Positions 23,859-58,867 of a stretch of DNA of 64,000 nt are shown piece by piece. The stretch lies in assembly GCA_958295945.1 (NCBI GenBank), contig OY282386.1, positions 1,303,371-1,367,370 on the forward strand, in the 5' to 3' direction. How positions within the stretch are numbered: position 1 is the stretch's first letter; the number at the start of each line of letters is the position of its first letter. Below the pieces are notes generated by a model. The model made no database searches. It saw only the letters and a program-made list of their open reading frames with translations, and was not told the DNA's origin. The stretch comes from Candidatus Poribacteria bacterium (GTDB lineage Bacteria; Poribacteria; WGA-4E; WGA-3G). The position numbers were made by a program, and so were the translations under genes.

Positions 23859-26800
23859 ATGTTAGTCAAAAAATACATAATCTTGCTCAGTGTCTTTTCA
23901 GTATTTTTCTCAGGACTATTCTTTGTCACCCTAAGTTTTTCACAAGATGAAGCGACTGATGAAAAAATTATTGAACGATACAAGTTGATGCTCATTCGGA
24001 AACCGAAAGAGGGGAGTACGTTTGATAGACTTTATCAGTTTTATCTTGAAGGATCGGGTTTAGAAGCGATGGTCTCTGATTATCAATCGGAGGCACAGGA
24101 AAAACCTAACGATCCGAACATTCAACTTATCTTGGGGCATATATATAAACGACTGGGTAAGGACGAGGAAGCCTTGACTGCGTATCAACGCGCTGTGGAA
24201 CTCTCACAGAATGATTATTATGCACATTTTGCGTTAGGTCAGTTGTATGTGATACTCCGTCACCATGAAGATGCCATTAGTGAATTGACGAAAGCAACAT
24301 CGTTATCAGAACAGGCACAGACTATCTCTCCCGAAGAGTTGACAGATATTTACAAGACATTGGGGCATGCGTATTTTAGCCGCGATATGTTAGATGAAGC
24401 GATTAAGGCGTGGGAAAAGATTTCTGAACTTGATCCTGACGATATCTTTGCACGAATAGAACTGGCTGACCTGTTTCGTGAACAGGAGTTGTATACTCAA
24501 GCCATTGCACAATATGAAGAAATCATAAAACTTAAGAAAGATGACACATATCGTAAATGTTTGAGTATGCGGGAGATTGGGAAAATCCACGAAGAATCGG
24601 GTGAATATCAGAAGGCGTTGCAACAGTATGATGCGGCGTTAGACCTGACCGCACAAGGTAATTGGCTGAGAAAAGACTTGCAACACAGGATTATTGCCAT
24701 ATATTCGGCAGATGCAAATTGGAAAGACCTGATTGCTTATTATGATGTTAAACTTGAGACAAATCCGAATGATCCAGAAACTCTCGGTCTACTTGCTGCA
24801 GCGTATATTGAAAATCAGCAGCTTGAGGAAGGCATTGATACCTATAAGAAGGGATTAGCACTTGCCCCAACCGATACGGGACTTCGCCTCAGCCTGATAG
24901 GCGCGCTTCGTGATGCGGAAAAGTTTGAAGATGCGGCTGTGGAATATGAAACACTTAGTGAACAACACCCTGATGACATTGGAATATATCGCGAACTTGG
25001 AAAATTGTATCTGCAGCTTGAAAATGAAGAGCAGGCGAAGGGAGTTTATCAACGTCTGATTGATCGAGATCCGAAGAGTGCTAACATCTACATCACCCTT
25101 GCTGAAATATACACGGGGCACGAATGGCTTGAAGATGCGGTGGCTGCATATCAAAAGGCAACGGAACTTGATACTGATAATCTCGATTATATTGAGTATT
25201 ATGGGGACTTTTATTATAGACAAGGTGAAAGTCCGAAGGCGATTGAAACATGGAATCGGATGGTGGTAGACACCAAAAGCACTGCTGAGAACTATGACCG
25301 TTTGGCACGTCTACTTGAAACCAAAAAGTTTTCAGACGAGGCAATTGATGCAAGTAGAAAAGCGGTTGAATTGATGCCAGCGACTTATCGTTTCAGGGAG
25401 TCGTTAGCCAAAAGACTGATGAACAATGAGTTGTATGTCGAGGCACTCGTGGAATATACGGAAGCGATGAAGCTTGCACCGAATGCGTTTTTTGCTGAAC
25501 AGATGGACGACAAGCGGATTGAACTCTACAAACGGCAGGGAACACTTGTAAAAAGAATTGAAGAGATAGAAACAGAACTTGATACACCCGAACTTGCGGA
25601 TAACGATAAATTTGCACAACAGAAACGGCTTGCCAAGATGTATCTGAAGTTAGGTAATACTGCCTACGCGTTGGAAATTCTTTTGGATGCAAAGAAACTA
25701 CGACCCGACGATATAAATGTCAATCGTTGGGCAGCAAATATCTATGTCAAACAAGGAAGACGTGATGAAGCGATTAACATTTACCGTCATCTAACGAATA
25801 TTGATAACACAAATGCGCGTGAGTATTATTCTAATATAGCGAAAATTTATCTGGAAACTCTGGATTTTGAGAAGGCTAAGGAAGCTGCGAAACAGGTCGT
25901 CGCGCATAGTCCTCGTAATCCCGAGGGACATCACTTGTTGGCACAAATTGCTATGCAATCCGGTGATTACGACACATCTGTTGATAGTTTTAAACAAGCA
26001 ATTCGTTTGCGTCCGGAAGCGATTGATATCCGTAGTGAACTGGCACAACTTTATCACAATTCAGGTGACTTTAGACTTGCAATTGCACAGTATTGGCGTT
26101 GTTGGAATCTCAGCGACAATATCAGTGATAAGCTTAGTTTTATCCAACCACTGGGAGAAGCATATTATAGTTTAGGTAGGCGTACGGAACTCGCGGAAAG
26201 ATTGAAACAGATGGCTAAATCCCAGATGGCTATATCACAGACATCTGGGATTGCATCTGTCTTAGCTCTTGCCCAAGTCTATCGTAATGAAGGCGATCTA
26301 TCAAGTGCGCGTTTTCAGCTTGCACGCGCATTAGATCAGCGACGAGAGAACCCAGAACTATTATATCAACTTGTTGGCATAAGTTTAGACCTTGGTGATA
26401 TTGAGGAAGCTTTAAGTTATCAGCAGCAACTTGTCAAAGCAGATCCCGATCCTATTCATCAGCAAAAACTTGGTGAACTTTTGTTTGATGTTGGGCGCGA
26501 ACAAGAAGCCGTACAAACATGGTCAAAAGTGTTGCATCAAAAGAAGCATACACTTGATGCAGAAATCAGACTCGCAAAGTTATTGATTAGACACGGGTTA
26601 ATGGAGGAAGCATTCTTTGCCCTTGACAATGCAGCGGAAAAGATAACCGGGGCAGATGCATACATTGGGTTGTATCAAATTGGTGCTACTTTGGTTGAGA
26701 TAAGCGAACCTGAGAAAGCGTTACCATACTTCCAACAAATCGTAGAGATGTCAAAACCTGCACAGGGGACAGGTTTTGCTACAACAAAGAAAAAATCAAG

Positions 26801-29800
26801 AACTACTAATACGAATCCCAATTCCTTTTATGGTCCACCTGGGACAAATATATACAAACTTCATCTTGCCAGCATTCTCTCACAACGTGTGCAACCTCAG
26901 CAGTATTCTTCAAGAAATGTCTCTCCATGGGTTCCAACCACATTTGAAGAAGCACAGGCTGCCGCACTTGTGCAGGTGAAGTCGATCATGGATGATCTCG
27001 GTCAGTTGGATGACATGTTTGCTCAGTATGAGGAAAAAGTAACTGCGAATCCCAAGGATATCCAAACGCTTGAACTGTTAGCACAACTATACATTTTGAT
27101 GAAGAATCAAGAAAAAACAGATGAGGTATTAGATAAGTTGTTAACAGCCTCACCTGATAATTTAGTATATCAAGGCATTAAGTTAGGATTGTTGGTTGAT
27201 CAAGAGGGTTTTCAATATGATAGCTTCATAAATTATCTTGATAAGATGACTGGATTGACATTAGATGGAAAAAATTGGTATCTGTTAGAATTTGCCTCTA
27301 TATTCCTTAGTCAAGGAAAACGTGATTCAGCTGAGAAAATGTTGGATGAACTTGATGGAATGAATGTGCTTCAACTCAGTAATGGACATAGATTAATGGA
27401 TCTACTTGTAAGAATGGGGAGGATAGAACAAGCAGAAGAGATGCTATCGGAACTTCCTACGACAACTGGTGCACGCACTTCACAACAATATACACGCATA
27501 TATGAAACAGTATCTAACACATATCTCAGCAATGGAGATCCAGACAAAGCAATAGAATACTTTTGGAAATATATTGAAAAGACCAATCCAACAGTGTCCA
27601 ATACAAGGTATGTAGCAAGTTTGACTTATTCCACCTATTCGAGCAGCCAGACGTATCAAACCAATTTTCCATCACCTACATCGTACTATACTCAGACACG
27701 GTTGGATTTTCTGCAAAAGTTTTTCAATAAAATATGGATCAAAGAACAACAAGAACTATTCTACACAGTATTAGAGGATAAGTATAACGGTTCGGAAGGT
27801 AGAAATCGTATCTATCCAGCATTAGCTATTAGTTATTGTAAATGGTGGGATGGAAAACGAGACAAGTCGCTTGAAGTACTGAACAAGTTACAAGAGGAAT
27901 TCCCGGATGACCTATCATTAAAGATGAATACGATATTCGTTTCAATTCAATCTGGCAAATACAACGTAGCATTAGATGTTGTGAAGGAACTTATTCATTC
28001 GGATCCAAAGAATCTGAATCAATATTACGATCTGACATTACAAATTGCGATGTATACAGGCGATTCTTCTGTAGTGCGTGATTTGATGAAAAACATTTTG
28101 AACTCACCTACAAGTGTACAGCAGCTTCACAATTTCTCACAGAAATTGCAGAGTGTGGGATTCACACAATATGCTGTTGCTGTTTCACAAAAAGCGATGG
28201 ATTTAGTCTTGAGAGAAAGGGATCCGAGTTTTTTGAGAAAGTTTAGTACTCATTTAAACGATTTAGGTCGCGGGCAGGATGCTGCACGTTTGACTCAACG
28301 TGCAGCTAAGTTAGAAAATTTGAAAGTCTTGTCTGGGCAAACATTACCGAACATGAATATTCGATCGGTAACGCTTTCTCCTAAACGGTTAAAGATGATT
28401 CAAGATCGTGAGGCGAAATTAGTCAAAATAGTTGAACAGAATCCGAAATCCTTCAAAGCACAGTCCAATTTAGCCGCATTTTACTCAAGTAGAAATCAGG
28501 TGCAGAAAGCGATACAAACATATCAAGCAGCTCTTGAACTGCGTCCCAATGATAGCACGTTACGTAATCAATTTGCAGACATGTTACGGCGAGTCGGAGA
28601 AGCAAAAAAAGCAGTTGAACAATATACGTATCTACTCAAGAACAACATCTCTACTTCCCAATACAGTTACTATCAATATGGATATATCATAGAAACATTT
28701 ATCCAAGCAGGCGAAATAAAAAAACTTATTTCAATTGCCAAAGAAATGGTTGGGAATAATCAAGGTTCTGGACGTAGTAATGAATTTGTTCGTAGGATTG
28801 CTCAGCATTTTAGAAACAACAACAATAATGTTATACCACTGATTGAGATTTACGAAAAATCACTTGAGTCTGGATCAGAGACTCATTTTTATGACTTAGT
28901 TTCAGCATACATGTCTACCGGCAATCGTGATAAAGCAAGGCAACTATTAGTAGGTAAACTCAAGACCGGACCTGCGGAAAGACAAGTAAATGTGGTACTT
29001 AGGTTGTCTAATTTAGATGAAGGTTTAGATGATTTGAAGAATTTGGCAAAAGAATATGAGGAGAAGTTTCCTATGGATACTGCTGAATCTTCTATGTTAT
29101 ATCTACTTACTATCTTAAAAATAGCAACAAATGACTTAGAGGGGTCAGATATATATGTAGAAAAACTGTTGAAGAATAAATCCAATAATATTGGATCGTA
29201 TTGGCTTCATACGATTGCTAACGCATATCAGGACAAAGGGGATTCAGACCGTCAACAACGTATGCTTGAGGCTGCAATTGAAATCGTAGATCTAAATAAT
29301 ACCGGTCAACTATCAAACACCTACCAATCACTTGGTAAAATATACGCAGATAAAGGGGAGAAAGAGAAAGCGAAGAAAGCCATCCGAAAAATGGGTAATC
29401 TCCGCCTGATGCGTAGTGGTGGTGCTCGTTTTTATGATAAAGATACGGTCGCTCGCACATACATGGACCACGGTTTGTATGACGAAGCGGAAGTGTTGTT
29501 GATAGAAATCATCAACGACTTATCTGCACATTCATATTACCGTGAACGGGCTCAAGAACAATTAGTGACAATCAGAGTCAGACGTGGTGGGACAGACAAT
29601 AGATTGGAAAACACAATGGATGATATGAATATTGCCTTACTCCGTACAAAAGCACAAGAAGAAAAAGGAAGGGGAAACTACTACGAGGCAATTAGAATCT
29701 ACGAGCAGATAGTCAAAAAATCACCAGACGACCTTGGTTCGCGTGCTGAACTTGCTTCTCTTTACACATTGCAGAATGAACAAGATAAAGCAATTGAGAT

Positions 29801-32800
29801 GTGGGACGCTCTGCTAAAAGTTGATCCTGCAAATACAAAATATCAGGATGGACTTGTGGATGCATACAAAGTGGCAAATAGAATTGATGATGCGATTGAG
29901 TTTGCACAAGGATATATACAAGAGAATCCAGATACCGGTCTACACCATACTCGACTTGCAGATTTATATGCATTCAATGGACAGATTGACACTGCGATTA
30001 CAACCTATAAAAAGGCGATAGAACTCTCCCCGAGTGACGCTAAATCACATGAGGAATTAGCCAAACTTTATGAGAAAAATCGAAACTATGATGCTGCAGA
30101 AAAGTCGTATAATGATGCCCTAAAATTCTCAGCACCAGGGAGTAATCAAGCGAAGGTAAGACAGAGTTTGATGAAAATTTATCAACGTCAAGGAAAATTA
30201 GAGGAGATACTGAAACAAGCTGAAGAGCAGGGGACTCTGACCTTTGATATGCAACAGGAAAGAGCACGGATATATCAAAACAACGGAGATATGGAAAAAG
30301 CAGCGAGTGCATACCAAAAGGCTTTAGGAATGACAGCAGATAAATATGCACGCGGTGATATTCAACGGCAATTGATCAGCATCCATTCTAAACTTGGTAA
30401 ATTAGAGGAATATCTGAAGGAAACAGAGAAACAAGGAATGGTATCTTTTGAAATGCAGAGGGAGATTGCACGGTTATATCAAAATAAACGTGAATATGAT
30501 AAAGCGGCAGCTGCCTACAAGAAAGCTGCGCAAATGACTACACAATCTTATGAGCGGCGAGAACTTGAACGACAAATGATGCAACTCTATCGTCAATCCG
30601 GGAAGTTTGAGCAATTTCTAAAAGATATGGAAAAGGATGGCACCCTCTCTGCTGATATGCAGGTTGAGCTTGCAAAATACTACAGTTCACGTGGGAAATC
30701 CGAAAAAGCAATAGAAGCATATCAGAAGGCGAACAATATGACAGATAGCGACCAAGAGGAAATATCAAATCTGATGATGAATGAATTTGTTAAACTTGAC
30801 AAGACTGACAAAGCAATAGAAATATATGAAAGTCTCGTTAGCAATTCCTCAGAAAGTCAGTCAATTAGCTATTACAGCGGATCCTCTGGTTTCCGAATAC
30901 AATCTGAAAAAGAACAAGCACGTGAATCCTTAATTAACGTCTTTAAACGCAATAGAAAACTCAACGAACTTGAGAAGATTTACAGTACTAAGTTGGAAAA
31001 GGAACCGAATGATACAGATATTCTTACTGTTTTAGCCGAGATACACCGCAATTCTAAAAATTATGAAAAAGCTGCAGAAGTCTATCAGAATCTATGTAAA
31101 ATAGAACCAGAGAATGTTCGCAATTATTTTTATGCTGCTGCGTCTCTTGAAAAAATTGGACAGAAAGAACAGTCGCAAGCATTGATAGAACAAGGGAATA
31201 ATGCCCTTTCGTCGAGACCAGACAATAAAGATTCCATGTTGTTATGTACACTTGGTTCTATCTGCTATGAAAGCAAAATGTATGAACCGGCAATTACATT
31301 GTTCAAAGAAGCAGCTAAAGTGAATGAATTGACAGGTATCAATAGTAATATCCGATGGCAACAAGAGAATATATATGAAATACTTGGCAAAAGTTATATG
31401 GAAACCAAGCAGTATGAGGAAGCAGTTGAGGCGTATCAGCATAAACTGAAACTTACGACACATGATCATTCCAGAGAGAGAATTGAAAAGGCAATTAAAC
31501 AAGCCTATGATGCGGGGAATCTCCACGAGAAACATATTCCAGAACAGTTGGAAAAGGTCCAACAGAATCCGAATGATGTCAATGCAAGAATTACACTTGC
31601 TGAGAGTTACGTGTCAAGTGAGAGGTATGACGAGGCAATTGTTCAGTTTGAGAAGATCAGCGAATTGCAACCGAACTCTCCGAAATGGCACAAAACTGTA
31701 GGGGATTTATACGGAAAGACTAAACAGACTAACAACACAGAATGGCTACAAAAAGCTGCAACTGCGTATGAGAAAGCAATTGCACTGGATCCGAATTCCT
31801 ATGAATTCTATGACACTTTAGCAAAGTTGTATGCGGAAAACGGTGATTCTACAAAAGCCGAAGCAGTCTATATAAGAGCACTGAATGCATCCCACAATCC
31901 AGATGAACATGATAAGGTCGTCAATGCCATTTTGGATCTTGATAAGTCATATAGGGAATTAGACAAACGGCTTGAGAAACTTGAAGAAATCAATACAAAA
32001 AAACACCATAGCACACTTTTACATAAACTATTGGGTGATACCTATTTAGCTTCAGGTGATACGGAAAAAGCCTCTGTATCTTATAAGAAGTGGTTGGAGA
32101 TAGTGAAAAAAGAAAGTGAGAAAGGTAAGCGTGCGATGGCATTATATCAATTTGCTGAACATCTGTTGGATACAAACAAACTACCAGAGATTGCATTAGA
32201 GGCAGCAAAGCATGCAACGCAAGCCAGATCGGATGCAACCTATTTCTCAACATTAGGCAACGCCTATCTGGTCAATGAACAATTTGAAAATGCATTTGAA
32301 CAATTTGAACGAAGTTTTAACCTTATGAATCAATCCGGCGGTTTGCGCGGTAACAAGTTAGAACCTTTATTGAGACGTATTTCACAAGCGATCGAAAATA
32401 TGCAAGATAAGTCTCGGTATCAGGAACTGATGGGTAAACTAATTGATTCAATCCCGACTGATGTTGACACTGAACTTGAAACCATCTTGTTATTGGCAGA
32501 TTTCTGTCGTAAACTCAATTTGACTGATAAGGCAAAGGCATTCGTACAGAAAACGGGTTTCTTCCCTCAAACTGCTTGGTTAATACTCGGTCCGTTTGAC
32601 AATGCGAACGGTGTTGGATATAGTACTGCTTTCATTCCTGAAGAACAGACGCAAATTGATAAAACCGCAGAATATGATGGGGTAACAGGTAAGATAAAAT
32701 GGGTCAAAAGTTCTGATGAGATCTTTGATGGGTTCTCCGACTTTGGTATGTATGAGCAATTCTATGCCGCTTATGCCTGGATTTCATTTACATCCCCTGA

Positions 32801-33056
32801 AGAGAGGGAAGCAGAAATCCGATTTGATAGTGATGACCAAGGTAAAGTGTATTTGAATGGTAAAAAAGTATATGCACATAGAAGAACACGGGGTGCGACC
32901 ATTGACCGACGCACTATTCCTGTAACGCTTGCTGCAGGAGAAAACACTATCCTTGTCAAAGTCTGCAATGAATCTCTACCGTGGGGATTCTATTTGCGCA
33001 TTACTGATACGGATGGAAATCCTTTTGATGATTTGAAAGTCGTAGATACTGAATAG
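23859..33056 (+). CDS. giant secreted TPR-repeat protein (3065 aa) with a C-terminal galactose-binding-like beta-sandwich domain
   Basis: AAGGAGA RBS, signal peptide and dozens of TPR units. The C-terminal 150 aa (LGPFDN ... FRFDSDDQGKVYLNGKKV ... LVKVCNESLPWGFYLRITDTDGN) are shared with the 708-aa paralog. Confidence 0.85.
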   Translation: MLVKKYIILLSVFSVFFSGLFFVTLSFSQDEATDEKIIERYKLMLIRKPKEGSTFDRLYQFYLEGSGLEAMVSDYQSEAQEKPNDPNIQLILGHIYKRLGKDEEALTAYQRAVELSQNDYYAHFALGQLYVILRHHEDAISELTKATSLSEQAQTISPEELTDIYKTLGHAYFSRDMLDEAIKAWEKISELDPDDIFARIELADLFREQELYTQAIAQYEEIIKLKKDDTYRKCLSMREIGKIHEESGEYQKALQQYDAALDLTAQGNWLRKDLQHRIIAIYSADANWKDLIAYYDVKLETNPNDPETLGLLAAAYIENQQLEEGIDTYKKGLALAPTDTGLRLSLIGALRDAEKFEDAAVEYETLSEQHPDDIGIYRELGKLYLQLENEEQAKGVYQRLIDRDPKSANIYITLAEIYTGHEWLEDAVAAYQKATELDTDNLDYIEYYGDFYYRQGESPKAIETWNRMVVDTKSTAENYDRLARLLETKKFSDEAIDASRKAVELMPATYRFRESLAKRLMNNELYVEALVEYTEAMKLAPNAFFAEQMDDKRIELYKRQGTLVKRIEEIETELDTPELADNDKFAQQKRLAKMYLKLGNTAYALEILLDAKKLRPDDINVNRWAANIYVKQGRRDEAINIYRHLTNIDNTNAREYYSNIAKIYLETLDFEKAKEAAKQVVAHSPRNPEGHHLLAQIAMQSGDYDTSVDSFKQAIRLRPEAIDIRSELAQLYHNSGDFRLAIAQYWRCWNLSDNISDKLSFIQPLGEAYYSLGRRTELAERLKQMAKSQMAISQTSGIASVLALAQVYRNEGDLSSARFQLARALDQRRENPELLYQLVGISLDLGDIEEALSYQQQLVKADPDPIHQQKLGELLFDVGREQEAVQTWSKVLHQKKHTLDAEIRLAKLLIRHGLMEEAFFALDNAAEKITGADAYIGLYQIGATLVEISEPEKALPYFQQIVEMSKPAQGTGFATTKKKSRTTNTNPNSFYGPPGTNIYKLHLASILSQRVQPQQYSSRNVSPWVPTTFEEAQAAALVQVKSIMDDLGQLDDMFAQYEEKVTANPKDIQTLELLAQLYILMKNQEKTDEVLDKLLTASPDNLVYQGIKLGLLVDQEGFQYDSFINYLDKMTGLTLDGKNWYLLEFASIFLSQGKRDSAEKMLDELDGMNVLQLSNGHRLMDLLVRMGRIEQAEEMLSELPTTTGARTSQQYTRIYETVSNTYLSNGDPDKAIEYFWKYIEKTNPTVSNTRYVASLTYSTYSSSQTYQTNFPSPTSYYTQTRLDFLQKFFNKIWIKEQQELFYTVLEDKYNGSEGRNRIYPALAISYCKWWDGKRDKSLEVLNKLQEEFPDDLSLKMNTIFVSIQSGKYNVALDVVKELIHSDPKNLNQYYDLTLQIAMYTGDSSVVRDLMKNILNSPTSVQQLHNFSQKLQSVGFTQYAVAVSQKAMDLVLRERDPSFLRKFSTHLNDLGRGQDAARLTQRAAKLENLKVLSGQTLPNMNIRSVTLSPKRLKMIQDREAKLVKIVEQNPKSFKAQSNLAAFYSSRNQVQKAIQTYQAALELRPNDSTLRNQFADMLRRVGEAKKAVEQYTYLLKNNISTSQYSYYQYGYIIETFIQAGEIKKLISIAKEMVGNNQGSGRSNEFVRRIAQHFRNNNNNVIPLIEIYEKSLESGSETHFYDLVSAYMSTGNRDKARQLLVGKLKTGPAERQVNVVLRLSNLDEGLDDLKNLAKEYEEKFPMDTAESSMLYLLTILKIATNDLEGSDIYVEKLLKNKSNNIGSYWLHTIANAYQDKGDSDRQQRMLEAAIEIVDLNNTGQLSNTYQSLGKIYADKGEKEKAKKAIRKMGNLRLMRSGGARFYDKDTVARTYMDHGLYDEAEVLLIEIINDLSAHSYYRERAQEQLVTIRVRRGGTDNRLENTMDDMNIALLRTKAQEEKGRGNYYEAIRIYEQIVKKSPDDLGSRAELASLYTLQNEQDKAIEMWDALLKVDPANTKYQDGLVDAYKVANRIDDAIEFAQGYIQENPDTGLHHTRLADLYAFNGQIDTAITTYKKAIELSPSDAKSHEELAKLYEKNRNYDAAEKSYNDALKFSAPGSNQAKVRQSLMKIYQRQGKLEEILKQAEEQGTLTFDMQQERARIYQNNGDMEKAASAYQKALGMTADKYARGDIQRQLISIHSKLGKLEEYLKETEKQGMVSFEMQREIARLYQNKREYDKAAAAYKKAAQMTTQSYERRELERQMMQLYRQSGKFEQFLKDMEKDGTLSADMQVELAKYYSSRGKSEKAIEAYQKANNMTDSDQEEISNLMMNEFVKLDKTDKAIEIYESLVSNSSESQSISYYSGSSGFRIQSEKEQARESLINVFKRNRKLNELEKIYSTKLEKEPNDTDILTVLAEIHRNSKNYEKAAEVYQNLCKIEPENVRNYFYAAASLEKIGQKEQSQALIEQGNNALSSRPDNKDSMLLCTLGSICYESKMYEPAITLFKEAAKVNELTGINSNIRWQQENIYEILGKSYMETKQYEEAVEAYQHKLKLTTHDHSRERIEKAIKQAYDAGNLHEKHIPEQLEKVQQNPNDVNARITLAESYVSSERYDEAIVQFEKISELQPNSPKWHKTVGDLYGKTKQTNNTEWLQKAATAYEKAIALDPNSYEFYDTLAKLYAENGDSTKAEAVYIRALNASHNPDEHDKVVNAILDLDKSYRELDKRLEKLEEINTKKHHSTLLHKLLGDTYLASGDTEKASVSYKKWLEIVKKESEKGKRAMALYQFAEHLLDTNKLPEIALEAAKHATQARSDATYFSTLGNAYLVNEQFENAFEQFERSFNLMNQSGGLRGNKLEPLLRRISQAIENMQDKSRYQELMGKLIDSIPTDVDTELETILLLADFCRKLNLTDKAKAFVQKTGFFPQTAWLILGPFDNANGVGYSTAFIPEEQTQIDKTAEYDGVTGKIKWVKSSDEIFDGFSDFGMYEQFYAAYAWISFTSPEEREAEIRFDSDDQGKVYLNGKKVYAHRRTRGATIDRRTIPVTLAAGENTILVKVCNESLPWGFYLRITDTDGNPFDDLKVVDTE

Positions 33057-50458: not shown

Positions 50459-51604
50459 ATGGTAAACAGAAAATTTTGGCTAAATCAAATAGAAAATGCA
50501 TGGGAACGTCGGTCGGTCGTGTGGCTGTCAGGAGTCCGTCGCGTTGGAAAAACGTGCTTGTGTCAGACATTGCCTGATATTGAGTATTTTGACTGTGAAC
50601 TACCACGTGTCAGACGATTGATGGAGGCCCCACAAGAATTTCTTGACAGTATTGAAAGTGAGAGGATTGTACTTGATGAAATCCATCGGCTACCGAACCC
50701 ATCTGAATTATTAAAGATTGCAGCTGATCACTATCCACAAATTAAAATAATAGCAACAGGTTCTTCAACACTCGGGGCAAGTGCAAAATTCCGGGACACA
50801 CTCGCTGGACGTAAGACAGAATTATGGTTAACACCCATAATGATGGACGACTTAAATGATTTCAATCAATCCAACATACAGCATCGCTTATTACACGGTG
50901 GACTACCTCCGTTTTTTCTTGAGGCTGAATACCCAGAAAACGACTATCAAGAGTGGATTGATGCATATTGGGCGAAGGATATACAAGAACTCTTTAGGCT
51001 TGAACGCCGATATTCGTTTCAAAAATTTACTGAGCTGCTCATGTTACAGAGTGGCGGGATATTTGAGGCAACCAAGTTTGCTGCACCTTGTGAGGTGAGT
51101 CGTGGGACAATATCAAACTATCTGTCTATTTTAGAGGCAACTTTTGTTGTTCACATCATTAGACCGTTCAGCTCGCGTCGTTCATCAGAAATAGTTTCTG
51201 CACCAAAAGTCTATGGATTTGATACTGGATTTGTTTGCTACTATCAAGGATGGACACAACTACGGCAGGATGACCTTGGATTACTTTGGGAACATTATGT
51301 TCTAAACGAAATTATGGCACATATTCAATCGCGTGAGATACAATATTGGCGTGACAAAAGAGGGCATGAGGTAGATTTCGTTCTCACACGCTCTCGTCAA
51401 ATGCCTATAGTCGTTGAATGTAAGTGGTCTGCAACGGGATTTTCGCCTCGTCAACTCCTTGCATTCCGTAGACAATATCCTGAAGGATCGAATTTTGTGG
51501 TGGCACATGATGTAGATAGACCCTATACGAAAACGTATAACGGTATCACGGTTAATTTTCTTAATCTGAATACTTTGATTACAGAAATAACTAACAATAC
51601 GTAG
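50459..51604 (+). CDS. AAA_14 / DUF4143-family ATP-binding protein
   Basis: Walker A GVRRVGKT. Walker B IVLDEIH. C-terminal DUF4143-like region. Architecture common in mobile contexts. Confidence 0.7.
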   Translation: MVNRKFWLNQIENAWERRSVVWLSGVRRVGKTCLCQTLPDIEYFDCELPRVRRLMEAPQEFLDSIESERIVLDEIHRLPNPSELLKIAADHYPQIKIIATGSSTLGASAKFRDTLAGRKTELWLTPIMMDDLNDFNQSNIQHRLLHGGLPPFFLEAEYPENDYQEWIDAYWAKDIQELFRLERRYSFQKFTELLMLQSGGIFEATKFAAPCEVSRGTISNYLSILEATFVVHIIRPFSSRRSSEIVSAPKVYGFDTGFVCYYQGWTQLRQDDLGLLWEHYVLNEIMAHIQSREIQYWRDKRGHEVDFVLTRSRQMPIVVECKWSATGFSPRQLLAFRRQYPEGSNFVVAHDVDRPYTKTYNGITVNFLNLNTLITEITNNT

Positions 51605-51614
51605 GTAAATATGT

Positions 51615-52166
51615 ATGTATAAACAGATGCTAAAAGTTATTGGCGTAGTGATACTTTCATATTTAGTTTTGTCATTGATAGTCAAATATGCAATTACTCC
51701 ATCAACACAATTGAAGGTAAACGGACAAACGGTAGATGAACGGATACAACACATTCAAGAACAAATCGAATACTACAAGTTAGTCACTGAAACTATGGAT
51801 ATATCCTCAAAATCTATGGCAGCTTTCAATGCAATTGATTTGCGCCACCAAGAAGAAACTGTAGATTTTATTCCTTTGACTGAGACAATAAACAAGACAA
51901 TCAAAAAATTGAAGCAGGTGATAGAAAATGATACAGAAACGATTGAACTGTCTAATGAAGATGAAGGATACCTAAAATCATTGGTAGATTCACATACCAA
52001 GTTGAAGGAAAAACTGATAGAATTAAAACAGAATATGGAGAATATAAATACGCAAATTCAAACACTACTTATTGACAGACAAAATACTACCACATCAACT
52101 ATACCTATACAATCAATAAATTGTATGAAGCTTTTGAGAAAGTATCCGAAACAAAAGGTTCAATAA
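51615..52166 (+). CDS. hypothetical membrane-anchored coiled-coil protein (183 aa), AT-rich
   Basis: ORF with N-terminal TM segment. Visually low GC. Confidence 0.4.
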   Translation: MYKQMLKVIGVVILSYLVLSLIVKYAITPSTQLKVNGQTVDERIQHIQEQIEYYKLVTETMDISSKSMAAFNAIDLRHQEETVDFIPLTETINKTIKKLKQVIENDTETIELSNEDEGYLKSLVDSHTKLKEKLIELKQNMENINTQIQTLLIDRQNTTTSTIPIQSINCMKLLRKYPKQKVQ

Positions 52167-52381
52167 GCTCAATTTTTGGCAATACACTAAACATATTTCA
52201 ATCAATTACTCGTATGACTCTTATGCAACAAAATTGGGAAATGCAGATTGATTTCAGTATGAAAAGGGTTGTAGGTGGGATAGTATTTTGCTGTCTATTG
52301 TCAATTGGAATGGTCTTTCTTGTTATGAAACCAAGAAGGTTTTCTATGAAACAGTTTTATGCTAAGGATTCATTGGAATAA
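52121..52381 (+). CDS. hypothetical small protein (86 aa), doubtful
   Basis: ORF only. Overlaps the previous gene. C-terminal TM segment. Confidence 0.2.
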   Translation: MYEAFEKVSETKGSISSIFGNTLNIFQSITRMTLMQQNWEMQIDFSMKRVVGGIVFCCLLSIGMVFLVMKPRRFSMKQFYAKDSLE

Positions 52382-52495
52382 TGGATTAAATTTAATTGAG
52401 ACTTATCACACGTACCCAAACTATAGAGAGATTTGAAAAAGACAATTAGATCCAATATGCAACTTCGTATGACAATCTTAATGATTGGAGAATAA

Positions 52496-53419
52496 ATGTT
52501 AGAAACAACGGACGCATTACAAGTTGACATCAATGATTTGTCAAAACTCAAACCTTTAAGGATTGGAGATATTCTGGATGGAACATTTAGTCTTTACAGA
52601 AACCATATTACGCTGTTCTTGGGTGTTGCTTCAGTCTACCTTATTGCAATTGTAATAGAATATTCTATAAAAGGATTTCTCTCAAATTCCAATCTATCAA
52701 AGATACTCGCATCACTTATATCTTTACCGTTCGCTGTCCTAAGTATGGGTGGGATTGTTGTCGCTGCAGCCACAATATATCTTGGTGGTGAAATCACAAG
52801 TAGTACTGCTCTAAAACAGACATTTCGCAGGTTATGGACATTGGTATTTTGCCATCTATTATGGCGGATGGTTCAGGTGATACCACTCATATTTATCGTT
52901 TTATCCATTACTTCTGTAATACGAACAGGGACATGGGCACTGCCTATAATGACTGCTATTATCTGTATCCCTATTATAATTTATTTTTCTGTGCGTTGGA
53001 TTTTCTATGTTGAAACTGTCATAATAGAGAAATGTTCTGTTGGGGAAGCCCTGAGACGCAGCAGTGAACTCGTTCAAGAAAATTGGTGGAAAGTCTTTGG
53101 TATTATTTGCTTGATTCTAATATCAAGTTATGCGGTTAAGTACATCCTTGAGAATTCCCTCGGTCTTGTGTTAATATCTGCAAATTTGGCTGGCGGTACG
53201 GATTTGATATCACTCATTAAATGGTCAATTTTTGATAATGTTCTTGATACTAAAAGTTATCCATTTTACGTCATTATGACATGCGCTCAAATGGTTTTAA
53301 AGGCACTCGTCGCACCAATATGGATTATCGGCGTGACACTATTATACTTTGATCGTAGGATACGAAAAGAAGGGCATGATATTCAACTAACCGCAAACAA
53401 TCCTGACATTTTTGTCTAA
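52496..53419 (+). CDS. polytopic membrane protein (307 aa), Bat-operon associated
   Basis: GGAGA RBS. About 7 hydrophobic segments. Confidence 0.55.
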   Translation: MLETTDALQVDINDLSKLKPLRIGDILDGTFSLYRNHITLFLGVASVYLIAIVIEYSIKGFLSNSNLSKILASLISLPFAVLSMGGIVVAAATIYLGGEITSSTALKQTFRRLWTLVFCHLLWRMVQVIPLIFIVLSITSVIRTGTWALPIMTAIICIPIIIYFSVRWIFYVETVIIEKCSVGEALRRSSELVQENWWKVFGIICLILISSYAVKYILENSLGLVLISANLAGGTDLISLIKWSIFDNVLDTKSYPFYVIMTCAQMVLKALVAPIWIIGVTLLYFDRRIRKEGHDIQLTANNPDIFV

Positions 53420-56017: not shown

Positions 56018-56128
56018 AACCTTTCTATTACATCAATAACGCTATTCCAAAGATTAAGTTTAATCCACTATGTAGTATATGCTATACTTAACCCTAAGGA
56101 CATAACATCAAACTGTTGAGGTTACATT

Positions 56129-57442
56129 ATGAGCATTACACAATTCACAATGGAAGAGGTGCGGTGTTTCGGTGAACGTCAAACACTTGAAATTCGTCCT
56201 CTAACCTTTTTGGTGGGTGAGAATAGCACTGGGAAAACGACTGCACTCGCATGTTTCTATGTATTGGCAAATTATCTGCGAAATGGAGATTTGGATTTTA
56301 ATTCGGATCCTTATACATTAGGCACTTTTAAGGATATTGTTAGAAACAGTAACATAAAAGAGAAAAACTTCAAACTTGGATTTACTAGTAGAAATAACAA
56401 TGAAGATGTCCAAGTAACAGTTGAATTTGTAGAAAAAAAAGGAAGTATTGAACCGACTGCAAGTTCATTAAGAATGAAATTCGTTGATGGTGAAATCAAT
56501 CTTGAAACAGAAGGACAGAGAGATTTATCAGTTCATTTAGTCTCTTATGATGTGCATCAAAATCAATATAATCTAATCTGCGGTTCTGATGCTTTAAGTT
56601 CCCCTTATTTTCGATTACTCTCACTTGCTTTTAAAGGAAAATCTGATGGAGAAACTGCTTTAAACGAATATATGCATAAAAAGGGTCAACATATAGGAAT
56701 ATGCGATTATCAACCTTGGGACACATTTTGTGGTTTTTCGGTAAATAGTAGTTCTCCAATTAGGTCACGACCTAAACGCACCTACGATCCGGCACGCGAA
56801 TTTAACGATCCAGAAGGCAGTGATGTTCCGATGATGCTAATGCGATTGGCGGTTACCAGAAAAAAAGAATGGGAGAAACTAAAACAACAACTCATAGAGT
56901 TTGGAATAAGTTCCGGGCTTTTTCAAGACATAAAGATAAAGAACTTTAGCGGTTCCCTTGGTGGACCATTCCAACTGCAATTCAAGGTAAAGGGACCTAC
57001 TAAGAATATCGTAGATGTTGGCTATGGAATTAGTCAAATACTTCCGCTCTTAGTACAAGTATTATATCCAAGTCTTGCCCAATATAGTGAAAGTAAACCC
57101 ATACCCCCAAGTTATTCCTTACTCCAACAACCAGAGGTGCACCTACATCCAAGGGCTCAAGCGGAATTTACTACTTTATTGACAAGATTGACAAAACAGG
57201 GAAATCAGTCATTCATTATTGAAACACACAGCGACTATATGATAGACCGTGCACGTATTGAGATCAGAAAAGGAAACATCAAACCTGAAGATGTGTCTCT
57301 GGTTTACTTTGAACCGAAGAGAAATATTGTTAATGTGCATAATATTGGGTTTGATGAAATGGGTAACCTTGACGGTGCTCCTTCACATTATCGTGATTTT
57401 TTCCTCAAAGAATCTAAACGACTGATGGGTTTTGAGGATTAA
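56129..57442 (+). CDS. AAA_21 / DUF3696-type ABC-like ATPase (OLD / PtuA / AriA-like superfamily, no fused nuclease)
   Basis: N-terminal Walker A FLVGENSTGKTT. C-terminal LLQQPEVHLHPRAQAEF ... SFIIETHSDYMIDRA (signature/D-loop/H-loop-like). AT-rich. Confidence 0.8.
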   Translation: MSITQFTMEEVRCFGERQTLEIRPLTFLVGENSTGKTTALACFYVLANYLRNGDLDFNSDPYTLGTFKDIVRNSNIKEKNFKLGFTSRNNNEDVQVTVEFVEKKGSIEPTASSLRMKFVDGEINLETEGQRDLSVHLVSYDVHQNQYNLICGSDALSSPYFRLLSLAFKGKSDGETALNEYMHKKGQHIGICDYQPWDTFCGFSVNSSSPIRSRPKRTYDPAREFNDPEGSDVPMMLMRLAVTRKKEWEKLKQQLIEFGISSGLFQDIKIKNFSGSLGGPFQLQFKVKGPTKNIVDVGYGISQILPLLVQVLYPSLAQYSESKPIPPSYSLLQQPEVHLHPRAQAEFTTLLTRLTKQGNQSFIIETHSDYMIDRARIEIRKGNIKPEDVSLVYFEPKRNIVNVHNIGFDEMGNLDGAPSHYRDFFLKESKRLMGFED

Positions 57443-57445
57443 TAT

Positions 57446-57874
57446 ATGTGCGCGATATTGGATGCAAATACGTTTCATAAATTCAAGGATCCTTCCAATG
57501 AAGATATGAAACCCGTTTGGAAATGGTTAGAGAACAAAAATGGCAAAATAATCTATACGAGTACCAAGAAATTTGAGGAAGAATGGTATAAAGGAGGAAT
57601 GGATCCCATCAGAGAACAACTCATGCGTTCTGGTCAACTTAAATTGGTATCACAAGACGTGCAAGAAAAAGCAGACGAACTGAAAGATGAAATAAGATCT
57701 AATGATGAACACATTATAGCATTGGCTATAATAGCTCAAGTAAAAATTCTAATTTCATATAGAGAGGGGGACAGTGATTTGTTCAATGATTTTAAGAATC
57801 GTAATTTGGTTCACGGTAAAGTATACACCAGAAAAGAGCATCAGCGTTTGCTAACTAAAGACACTTGTCCCTAA
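57446..57874 (+). CDS. PIN-like nuclease-domain protein (142 aa), partner of the ATPase
   Basis: AILDANTF (first Asp). Central EEE. DEHIIALAIIAQVKILISYREGDSDLFNDF resembles the VapC D-x2-IAA-A ... T-x-D-x-DF C-terminal motif. GAGGA RBS. Only 3-nt gap after the ATPase. Confidence 0.5.
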   Translation: MCAILDANTFHKFKDPSNEDMKPVWKWLENKNGKIIYTSTKKFEEEWYKGGMDPIREQLMRSGQLKLVSQDVQEKADELKDEIRSNDEHIIALAIIAQVKILISYREGDSDLFNDFKNRNLVHGKVYTRKEHQRLLTKDTCP

Positions 57875-57916
57875 CTGAAAATGTAAGTTCAAGAATCGGA
57901 TTTAATGGAGCGAGAC

Positions 57917-58867
57917 ATGGCACAGCAATGGCACACCGAACAAGTTGCAATAGATGTGAAGATTGACCCGATTGAAGCATGCTATCAAAACGGATGGACT
58001 GATGGACTGCCCGTTGTTCCACCAACTCCGGAACGCGTTGAAAAAATGTTAAGCGGAACCACACGTTCCCGAGATGAATTGATTGCAGCACTCCCACCGA
58101 AATGGGGCAAAGCAACAGTTGAGCGGATAGCAATAAACGCTGTAATGGCGGGTTGTCTCCCAGAATATCTACCTGTTGTTCTTGCTGCTGTTGAGGCGAT
58201 GGTAGATGAGCGATTTAATTTACACGGTGTCCAAGTCACTACGTCACATGTTTCTCCTATGGTGATAGTCCATGGACCTATTCGGAAAAAGTTGAATATC
58301 AACGACGGTTTCAATCTATTTGGTCAAGGATGGCGGGCAAATGCTACTATTGGCAGAGCAGTCCGACTCATCTGTACAAACATAGGAGGGGCATTGCCTG
58401 CAGAATTAGACCGAGCTGCATTTGGACATGTTGGGAAGTATACGTGTTGCATTGCTGAAATTGAAGGTGAGGAAAACCCGTGGAAACCGCTACATGTGGA
58501 ACGCGGTTTTGAACCTGAAGACAACACTGTAACCGTTTTTGCTGGAGCAGGTCCTAAAAGTATCAACGATCACGGTAGCAATACCGCAGAAGGTATTCTT
58601 ACGACAATCTGTCAAAATATGGCAGCATCTGGTAATAGTAGGGGTGAAACCTTATTAGTCATCGGAATTGAGCATGCCGAGACAATTTCAGGTGATGGGT
58701 TTAGGAAATCAGATATCCGTAAACACATCGCTGAAACAACGAATCAATATTCTGAAGAAGATTTATTACTTATGGTAGCAGGTGGTCCAGCAGGGAGATG
58801 GAGTATGTTGGTTCAAGGTTGGGGTTCTCCCTCATCAAGAGCAATTTCAACTGAATTGAAAGATTGA
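57917..58867 (+). CDS. conserved hypothetical protein (about 316 aa)
   Basis: ORF with GGAG RBS (alternative start at 57905). Motif GWTDGLPVVPPTPERV, which I cannot assign to a family. Confidence 0.55.
   Translation: MAQQWHTEQVAIDVKIDPIEACYQNGWTDGLPVVPPTPERVEKMLSGTTRSRDELIAALPPKWGKATVERIAINAVMAGCLPEYLPVVLAAVEAMVDERFNLHGVQVTTSHVSPMVIVHGPIRKKLNINDGFNLFGQGWRANATIGRAVRLICTNIGGALPAELDRAAFGHVGKYTCCIAEIEGEENPWKPLHVERGFEPEDNTVTVFAGAGPKSINDHGSNTAEGILTTICQNMAASGNSRGETLLVIGIEHAETISGDGFRKSDIRKHIAETTNQYSEEDLLLMVAGGPAGRWSMLVQGWGSPSSRAISTELKD

Follow-up and report, generated by a model that had tools for sequence, protein, structure and literature searches.

What is the function of two tightly spaced genes, an ATPase gene and a gene for a small protein, that lie near the end of a 64,000 nucleotide (nt) stretch of Candidatus Poribacteria DNA, and do they belong to any of the known phage defence systems? 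The whole stretch is referred to below as the window (GenBank assembly GCA_958295945.1, contig OY282386.1, positions 1,303,371 to 1,367,370 of the forward strand). The first gene, at positions 56129–57442, encodes an ABC-type ATPase of 437 amino acids (aa) that is NsnB-like, belongs to the AAA_15/AAA_21 families and has no fused nuclease. The second gene, at 57446–57874, encodes a standalone PIN-domain protein of 142 aa with a VapC-like fold and a conserved acidic active site. The two genes and all features of the pair described below are located on the + strand. We consider the pair to be a self-contained two-gene anti-phage module of the abortive infection type, belonging to the class of systems with an ABC ATPase and a separate nuclease effector, with a probability of roughly two in three. 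The family is new, large and centred on sponge symbionts, and the combination of an ABC ATPase with a PIN protein is already known from the HEC-03 system.

The arrangement of the genes is as given in the original prediction, which was made from the sequence alone and described two open reading frames (ORFs) with a 3-nt gap and a ribosomal binding site of its own for the second; the first has one as well. The ATPase gene ends with TAA at 57440–57442, followed by TAT and by the ATG of the PIN gene at 57446. A binding site GAGG can be read at 56118–56121, 7 nt ahead of the ATPase start at 56129, and a second one, GAGGA at 57434–57438, is located within the last ATPase codons, also 7 nt before the start of the PIN gene.

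Linkage and motifs of the ATPase and PIN genes

Relatives were collected from one genome per species in GTDB with a 14-sequence alignment of the small protein as query. The scan gave 296 relatives, and the best 80 of these are nearly all from Candidatus Poribacteria or from sponge-associated 'Latescibacterota' metagenome-assembled genomes (MAGs), plus one Owenweeksia. Of 87 related loci, most of them from Candidatus Poribacteria, 81 have an ATPase homologue that ends 5–13 nt before the PIN gene, an adjacency far beyond chance. Six loci are exceptions: L059 is cut by a contig end, L020 has an IS630-like insertion inside the ATPase gene, in L027 the N-terminal ~370 residues of the ATPase are replaced, L055 has a frameshifted PIN gene, and the PIN matches of L074 and L078 are shortened N-terminally. 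The ATPase gene of L001 is split into two ORFs. The insertion in L020 (3419–4545) consists of two reverse-strand ORFs of 228 and 147 aa, by eye an IS630-type transposase, at about ATPase codon 320.

In distant members of the PIN family, with ~30–40% identity, an AAA_15/AAA_21 ATPase gene again stands directly before the PIN gene (L088, L093, L094/95, L096/97 and L098). The pair in L096/97 adjoins Eco57I-like, SNF2, HNH_2 and M78 peptidase genes, and that in L098 adjoins TacA/acetyltransferase and AAA_14/DUF4143 genes. Gammaproteobacteria bacterium AqS3, also a sponge symbiont, is the source of L094/95. In L094 (6598–9671) the genes after the pair encode a second AAA_15 ATPase, which is paralogous and has no PIN gene of its own, then an HTH/M78 peptidase and the PIN-like DUF4411, and the stretch resembles a small defence island. 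The two genes are kept as neighbours in Poribacteria and in distant lineages, which supports the proposal, made in the original prediction, of a candidate defence or abortive infection pair.

The small protein of the window gives nothing significant in Pfam, NCBIfam, PADLOC or PHROGs, and its best PIN-related match is to the PIN-like family DUF4411 in Pfam with an E-value of 0.13. Searches of PDB sequences with shallow and deep family profiles gave chance matches only. The family is large, with 395 close homologues at 70–77% identity and, in an exhaustive hidden Markov model (HMM) search at E≤1e-3, 1048 clusters at 50% identity, in which the full-length members are nearly all standalone proteins of about 130–160 aa. 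An alignment of 125 diverse members, with identities to the window protein down to ~28%, was used for the following comparisons. The Pfam PIN family PF01850 is matched by 102 of the 125 at E≤0.1, most of them below the gathering score, with a best E-value of 3.9e-11, and full-length matches cover profile positions 1–115 of 120. Further members match PIN_3, DUF4411, PIN_9 and PIN_4. D87 and D109 are invariant, and D6 (94%), E46 (94%), H89 (96%), D115 (98%) and S85 (in the 94–98% range) are highly conserved. The D-E-D-D layout is typical of catalytic PIN domains and is established for the superfamily (summarised in PMC12065111). Residues D6, E46, D87 and D109 make up what is, as predicted from the alignment, an intact metal-site layout of a PIN active site. 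The predicted structure has the Rossmann-like alpha/beta/alpha fold with parallel strands; a first AlphaFold model, from 24 close homologues, was mediocre (pLDDT, the predicted local distance difference test, 67) yet matched PIN domains, and was replaced by a model from the 125-sequence alignment. The small protein is a PIN-domain protein, as first suggested from its acidic residues, and this is visible only through family-level evidence. PADLOC and NCBIfam do not recognise the PIN partner, which leaves a gap in annotation.

Cys2 (57449–57451) is found in about 99% of the members with a complete N-terminus, the penultimate Cys141 (57866–57868) in 98%, and H132 in 76%. The two cysteines, with H89 and H132, could be a metal site or, by themselves, a disulfide joining both termini of the protein. 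A terminal Cys pair of this kind is not usual in VapC.

The ATPase is identified more directly. Pfam matches are AAA_15 (6.8e-21), AAA_21 (5.8e-14) and also AAA_23, with a weak DUF3696 match at residues 384–419 that falls below the cut-off (E 0.021). In PADLOC the best full-length match is NsnB of Menshen (6e-43, residues 3–433), followed by PDC-M55A (2.4e-41), and lower matches are AriA, the HEC-03 ATPase model (6.2e-22), Old, GajA and PtuA; those to the AriA, PtuA and GajA models (E 1e-9 to 3e-24) are confined to the ABC head motifs, and so is the match to Old. The nearest characterised relatives in PADLOC are all defence proteins. NCBIfam gives sub-threshold matches to PtuA and MAD3 and nothing else, and among solved structures the OLD nuclease 6p74 is nearest in sequence (E 3e-6). 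The original assignment to the OLD/PtuA/AriA-type ATPases without a fused nuclease agrees with these matches and with the motifs.

Conservation of the ATPase was measured over 82 non-identical homologues, where all the key motif positions are invariant. Walker A, G30ENSTGKT37, is encoded at 56216–56239, with G30, G35 and K36 found in all 82. The loop PIRSRPKRTYDP (residues 210–221, 56756–56791) has an R217 that is present in 82 of 82, and the motif is kept in distant members. A variant ABC signature, DVGYGISQ (residues 296–303, 57014–57037), has GxG in place of SGG, with G298, G300, S302 and Q303 invariant, and H367 is invariant in the H-loop IIETHSD (57215–57235; ETHSD at residues 365–369). 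The Walker B and D-loop region SLLQQPEVHLHP (57116–57151; LLQQPEVHLHP at residues 331–341) has QQ where OLD has EE, and Q333 is conserved in 81 and Q334, P335 and E336 in all 82 homologues. The counterparts are IIEEPEMYLHP in OLD 6p74 and MEQPEIHLHP, with EQ, in HEC-03. The Gln-Gln pair (57125–57130) takes the place of the acidic pair of Walker B. This unusual and conserved QQPE motif points to an ATPase that switches on nucleotide binding, with hydrolysis slow or altered, and not to a fast hydrolytic motor.

Two regions of the ATPase differ from the rest. Residues 101–200 (56429–56728), most variable from about residue 121, show a mean pairwise identity of 34% against ~70% for the other segments, with a column conservation of 0.42–0.50 across residues 121–200, and this hypervariable insert is a candidate sensor surface. 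The C-terminal tail (residues 376–437, 57254–57439) is weakly DUF3696-like, and its divergence tracks that of the N-terminal half of the PIN protein (Spearman 0.69, against 0.36–0.51 for other ATPase segments), a pattern that contact surfaces could produce by co-evolution. The tail is a candidate docking site for the PIN protein, as an analogy to the complex predicted for NsnB and NsnC.

Relation to HEC-03, Menshen and other defence systems

The closest counterpart in architecture is HEC-03 (Hma-embedded candidate 03) of Pseudomonas cichorii, consisting of WP_025259138 and WP_025259137, where a DUF3696-annotated ABC ATPase is followed by a VapC-like PIN protein of 157 aa; E. coli carrying HEC-03 is protected from phages, a defence for which neither gene is dispensable (Payne et al., bioRxiv 10.1101/2024.01.29.577857). 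The gene order is the same in the window, with an ABC ATPase of ~440–460 aa without a fused nuclease and then a PIN protein of ~140–160 aa, and the two ATPases share the GxGxSQ signature and an xQPExHLHP Walker B. The ATPases are distant, with 33% identity over 95 aa (E 2e-14), and the HEC-03 model scores 6e-22 on the window ATPase against 6e-43 for NsnB. The PIN proteins can be aligned by hhalign over the C-terminal half only, with 69% probability and an E-value of 4e-5. The conserved Cys2/Cys141 pair is a feature of the window family that sets it apart from HEC-03, and whereas HEC-03 is embedded in Hma systems of Proteobacteria, the window family is found on the chromosomes of sponge symbionts. 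In the literature searched there was no later work on the mechanism of HEC-03.

In ATPase sequence the pair is nearest to NsnB of Menshen, so that it is HEC-03 in architecture and closest to Menshen in its ATPase. Menshen, with the genes NsnA-NsnB-NsnC, was reportedly described by Millman in 2022. NsnB has a GxG signature, an Arg replacing the Q-loop Gln and EN in Walker B, and is predicted to clamp the PIN-like domain of NsnC with paired DUF3696 tails in an NsnB4-NsnC2 complex, where NsnC has a PIN-like domain without activity at its N-terminus and, fused to it, a separate nuclease or effector domain at its C-terminus (Li et al. 2025, PMC12065111). The full-length match, the GxG signature and the DUF3696-like tail are common to NsnB and the window ATPase, and in both cases the downstream partner has a PIN fold, in NsnC as its N-terminal domain. 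R217 may be the counterpart of the Arg that replaces the Q-loop Gln, a correspondence that we infer and that does not come from aligned residues. The differences are that Walker B has QQ in the window ATPase and EN in NsnB, that the window partner is a single-domain PIN protein of 142 aa retaining the catalytic acids whereas the PIN of NsnC is inactive and fused to a nuclease, and that an NsnA (DUF262/ParB) sensor gene is missing from the window pair, which has a VWA/GATase1-like gene upstream instead. No DUF262/NsnA gene is present in the window, and PF03235 (DUF262, NsnA) is found in no Pfam-annotated related locus.

The original prediction regarded a PIN partner as unusual for this class of ATPases, and in this it went too far, with HEC-03 (bioRxiv 10.1101/2024.01.29.577857) and the predicted pairing of NsnB with NsnC (PMC12065111) as precedents. 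The other systems of the class share an OLD-type AAA_15/AAA_21 ABC ATPase that controls a nuclease effector.

The effectors of these systems are of other types: AriB of PARIS is a TOPRIM/DUF4435 protein, PtuB of Septu is an HNH protein, and Gabija has a TOPRIM domain fused to the ATPase plus a helicase (GajB). The pair is not PARIS, since its partner is a PIN protein with no DUF4435 or TOPRIM match; it is not Septu, since the partner has no HNH match; and it is not Gabija or OLD, since the ATPase ends after a tail of ~60 aa without a fused TOPRIM domain, and no helicase gene is found near the pair. VapBC does not apply either, because there is no VapB-type antitoxin (AbrB, RHH or MerR-type) and the 437-aa ATPase gene is located directly upstream with no ORF between; the sequence identity of the window PIN protein to VapCs is 9–22%. 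PDC-M55 was considered as the identity of the pair and rejected, as it is a three-gene cassette in which the first gene is from a very broad ABC ATPase family, and its partner models all miss the PIN protein. Distinctive details of the window family are the QQPE Walker B, Cys2 and Cys141 in the PIN protein, and the shuffling of alleles inside the cassette at a fixed hotspot.

From these comparisons a mode of action can be proposed. The ATPase would oligomerise via its ABC head, and the C-terminal DUF3696-like tail would hold the PIN protein inactive or sequestered, as in the predicted NsnB4-NsnC2 architecture. The hypervariable insert at residues ~101–200 might recognise a phage-derived cue, and a nucleotide-dependent rearrangement would then release or activate the PIN protein. 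VapC-type PINs cleave RNA, and the D6/E46/D87/D109 metal site should likewise cut nucleic acid, most likely RNA (tRNA, rRNA or mRNA), by which translation and phage production would be halted. The parts of this scheme that we infer are the complex between the two proteins, its trigger, RNA as the target and abortive infection as the outcome. To our knowledge the mechanism of ABC-ATPase/PIN defence systems has yet to be worked out; for HEC-03 there are plaque-assay data only, and the interaction of NsnB with NsnC is only predicted.

The link to Menshen can be given a direction, tentatively and with the odds against it: an NsnB-type ATPase might originally have gated an active PIN protein through its tail, and the PIN of Menshen might later have lost its activity and served only to dock nucleases that were swapped in. 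On this view the Poribacteria cassette would represent a free-standing, active, ancestor-like form and a distinct, unnamed defence family kept across a whole phylum of sponge symbionts. The value of the family is incremental rather than a new principle, namely a new family with a plausible evolutionary link to Menshen. It is useful as a comparative model, being compact, with more than 1000 clusters at 50% identity and the effector active site kept. With one clearly hypervariable ATPase surface, and natural allele swaps that map the co-varying tail and PIN protein, the roles in sensing, docking and cutting become testable. It is also a near phylum-wide defence candidate for Poribacteria, uncultivated sponge symbionts whose phage-host biology is accessible only through genomes.

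Allele turnover and competing explanations

Horizontal acquisition had been suggested from the AT-richness of both genes. The AT-richness itself is real in comparison with the direct neighbours, with a GC content of 36.9% for the pair against 43.3% for the upstream and 45.2% for the downstream gene, and it is modest in the context of the window, which has a mean of 41.1% (sd 2.4) and where 3.8% of equal-sized windows have a GC content as low as or lower than that of the pair. The low GC comes mostly from the first and second codon positions and is therefore weak evidence of recent transfer; GC at the third codon position (GC3) is 0.283 for the ATPase and 0.336 for the PIN gene, with a gene mean of 0.355 (sd 0.043), and the distance in relative synonymous codon usage (RSCU) of both genes is typical for genes of similar length. 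Acquisition from outside is weakly supported because the codon usage is not foreign and because the chromosomal position is common to many Poribacteria. The same VWA/GATase1-like gene is located upstream of the ATPase gene in at least 25 related loci. Its protein identity is 77–97%, against mostly 55–75% for the pair, and therefore the position is shared but the cassette changes far more rapidly than the flanking sequence.

It is the replacement of alleles inside the cassette that gives real evidence of exchange. Three loci, L087, L029 and L008, have the downstream genes in common with the window as well. In L087 the flanking proteins are 84–93% identical to those of the window and the ATPase 82%, whereas the PIN protein is only 51% identical; the nucleotide identities are 84–86% in the flanks, 76% in the ATPase tail and 59–68% in the PIN gene. 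The PIN protein of L029 is chimeric: its first 30 residues are 100% identical, and the identity drops to 40% at the C-terminus. L008 has 92–97% protein identity over the whole region, and its divergent patch consists of the ATPase tail and the N-terminal half of the PIN protein; in L087, too, the tail diverges together with the PIN protein. PIN allele replacement together with a hypervariable ATPase insert is the signature of an arms race. The alleles are of two types, with or without a YREG insertion before D109 (L029 5001–5414, L087 5001–5420), and the L029 PIN is a recombinant of a window-type N-terminus and an L087-type C-terminus.

The pair might instead be a toxin-antitoxin (TA) module for addiction or stress, in which a constitutively active VapC-like PIN toxin is held by the ATPase as a protein antitoxin, with no dedicated phage sensing, and serves for stabilisation of the locus or dormancy. 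The VapC-like fold with its intact active site and the tight two-gene operon, spaced as in translational coupling, would fit such a module, TA genes adjoin the distant member in L098, and the Pfam description of AAA_21 mentions a type IV TA toxin. An essential antitoxin is hard to square with L020 and L027, two independent genomes in which the ATPase gene is destroyed but the PIN ORF is intact, acidic residues included, and these loci are suggestive that the ATPase is not a simple antitoxin, only suggestive because they are metagenome assemblies. The partner, an ABC ATPase of 437 aa whose nucleotide-binding motifs are invariant, is not a DNA-binding antitoxin of the VapB type, no Rfam family, tandem repeat or small antitoxin ORF is found near the pair, and the defence by HEC-03 needs both genes. 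On balance we regard a TA module as improbable. A type III-like RNA antitoxin or a repeat array was ruled out, as neither an Rfam family nor a tandem repeat is present.

A second alternative, which we find quite improbable, is a housekeeping or regulatory RNase system, for example for ATP-gated RNA processing or quality control, specific to the lineage of Poribacteria and other sponge symbionts, vertically inherited and in a fixed position. It is favoured by the presence in very many Poribacteria genomes and the almost exclusive origin of the best 80 relatives, by the common position downstream of the conserved VWA gene, by ordinary codon usage and by strong purifying selection on the motifs. 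It does not account for a cassette that outpaces its flanks and in which, at syntenic loci, PIN alleles are replaced or chimeric, nor for the hypervariable ATPase insert, for the natural knock-outs (L001, L020, L027 and L055), for the patchy occurrence outside the phylum beside restriction and TA genes, or for an ATPase whose nearest characterised relatives are all defence proteins. Finally, a degenerate and non-functional remnant of Menshen, one that lost both NsnA and the effector domain at the C-terminus of NsnC, would agree with NsnB as the best match and with the PIN-like domain at the start of NsnC, predicted to be bound by NsnB, but is most unlikely with no NsnA in the window or in related loci, a consistently ~140 aa standalone small protein across 1048 clusters, catalytic acids that the inactive PIN domains of Menshen lack, and clear purifying selection on both genes.

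Several observations weigh against the two-gene anti-phage module. There is no defence island at this site, where the neighbours are a VWA/BatA-like gene, a gene for a PhyH-HEAT protein, prmC and prfA, and the PIN of the pair had no match in the phage, plasmid and IMG/VR collections searched, which gives no link to mobile elements. The shared position in at least 25 loci and the wide presence in Poribacteria could fit a lineage-specific cellular function too. The similarity to the HEC-03 PIN is, as judged from profiles, marginal; the window PIN does not match the PADLOC model for it, and only one of the 125 family members does (6e-4). Physical linkage of the DNA alone could yield the co-divergence of the ATPase tail and the PIN protein, and the loci without an ATPase are metagenome assemblies that may represent recent events or assembly artefacts.

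Upstream signals and neighbouring genes

A promoter-like element that is conserved upstream of the ATPase gene is located at 56056–56092, with an extended -10-like sequence TGCTATACT at 56080–56088. A 6-bp palindrome, AGTATA (56074–56079) and TATACT (56083–56088), overlaps the extended -10-like sequence. The block is kept in seven of ten aligned upstream regions from Poribacteria loci, in which the proteins of the pair are mostly 55–75% identical, and could be a promoter plus an operator. It was recovered by comparative alignment alone; a generic scan for promoters and terminators around the pair, a sigma-70 scan included, made no call on the + strand, and the sigma-70 scan missed the element because its -35 region is weak.

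Directly downstream of the pair, a protein of 320 aa (57905–58867) has no Pfam match and is conserved, at 89–94%, only in the three fully syntenic relatives. An AAA_14/DUF4143 ATPase gene is located at 50459–51604, about 4.5 kb upstream, and a gene of the same family is found near the distant pair in L098. The lowest GC in the window, 30–37% and below that of the pair, is found at 51500–53300, a stretch encoding a 183-aa protein without a Pfam match and a 307-aa membrane protein that is GPDPase_memb-like. Further away, a + strand ORF of 3065 aa is located at 23859–33056.

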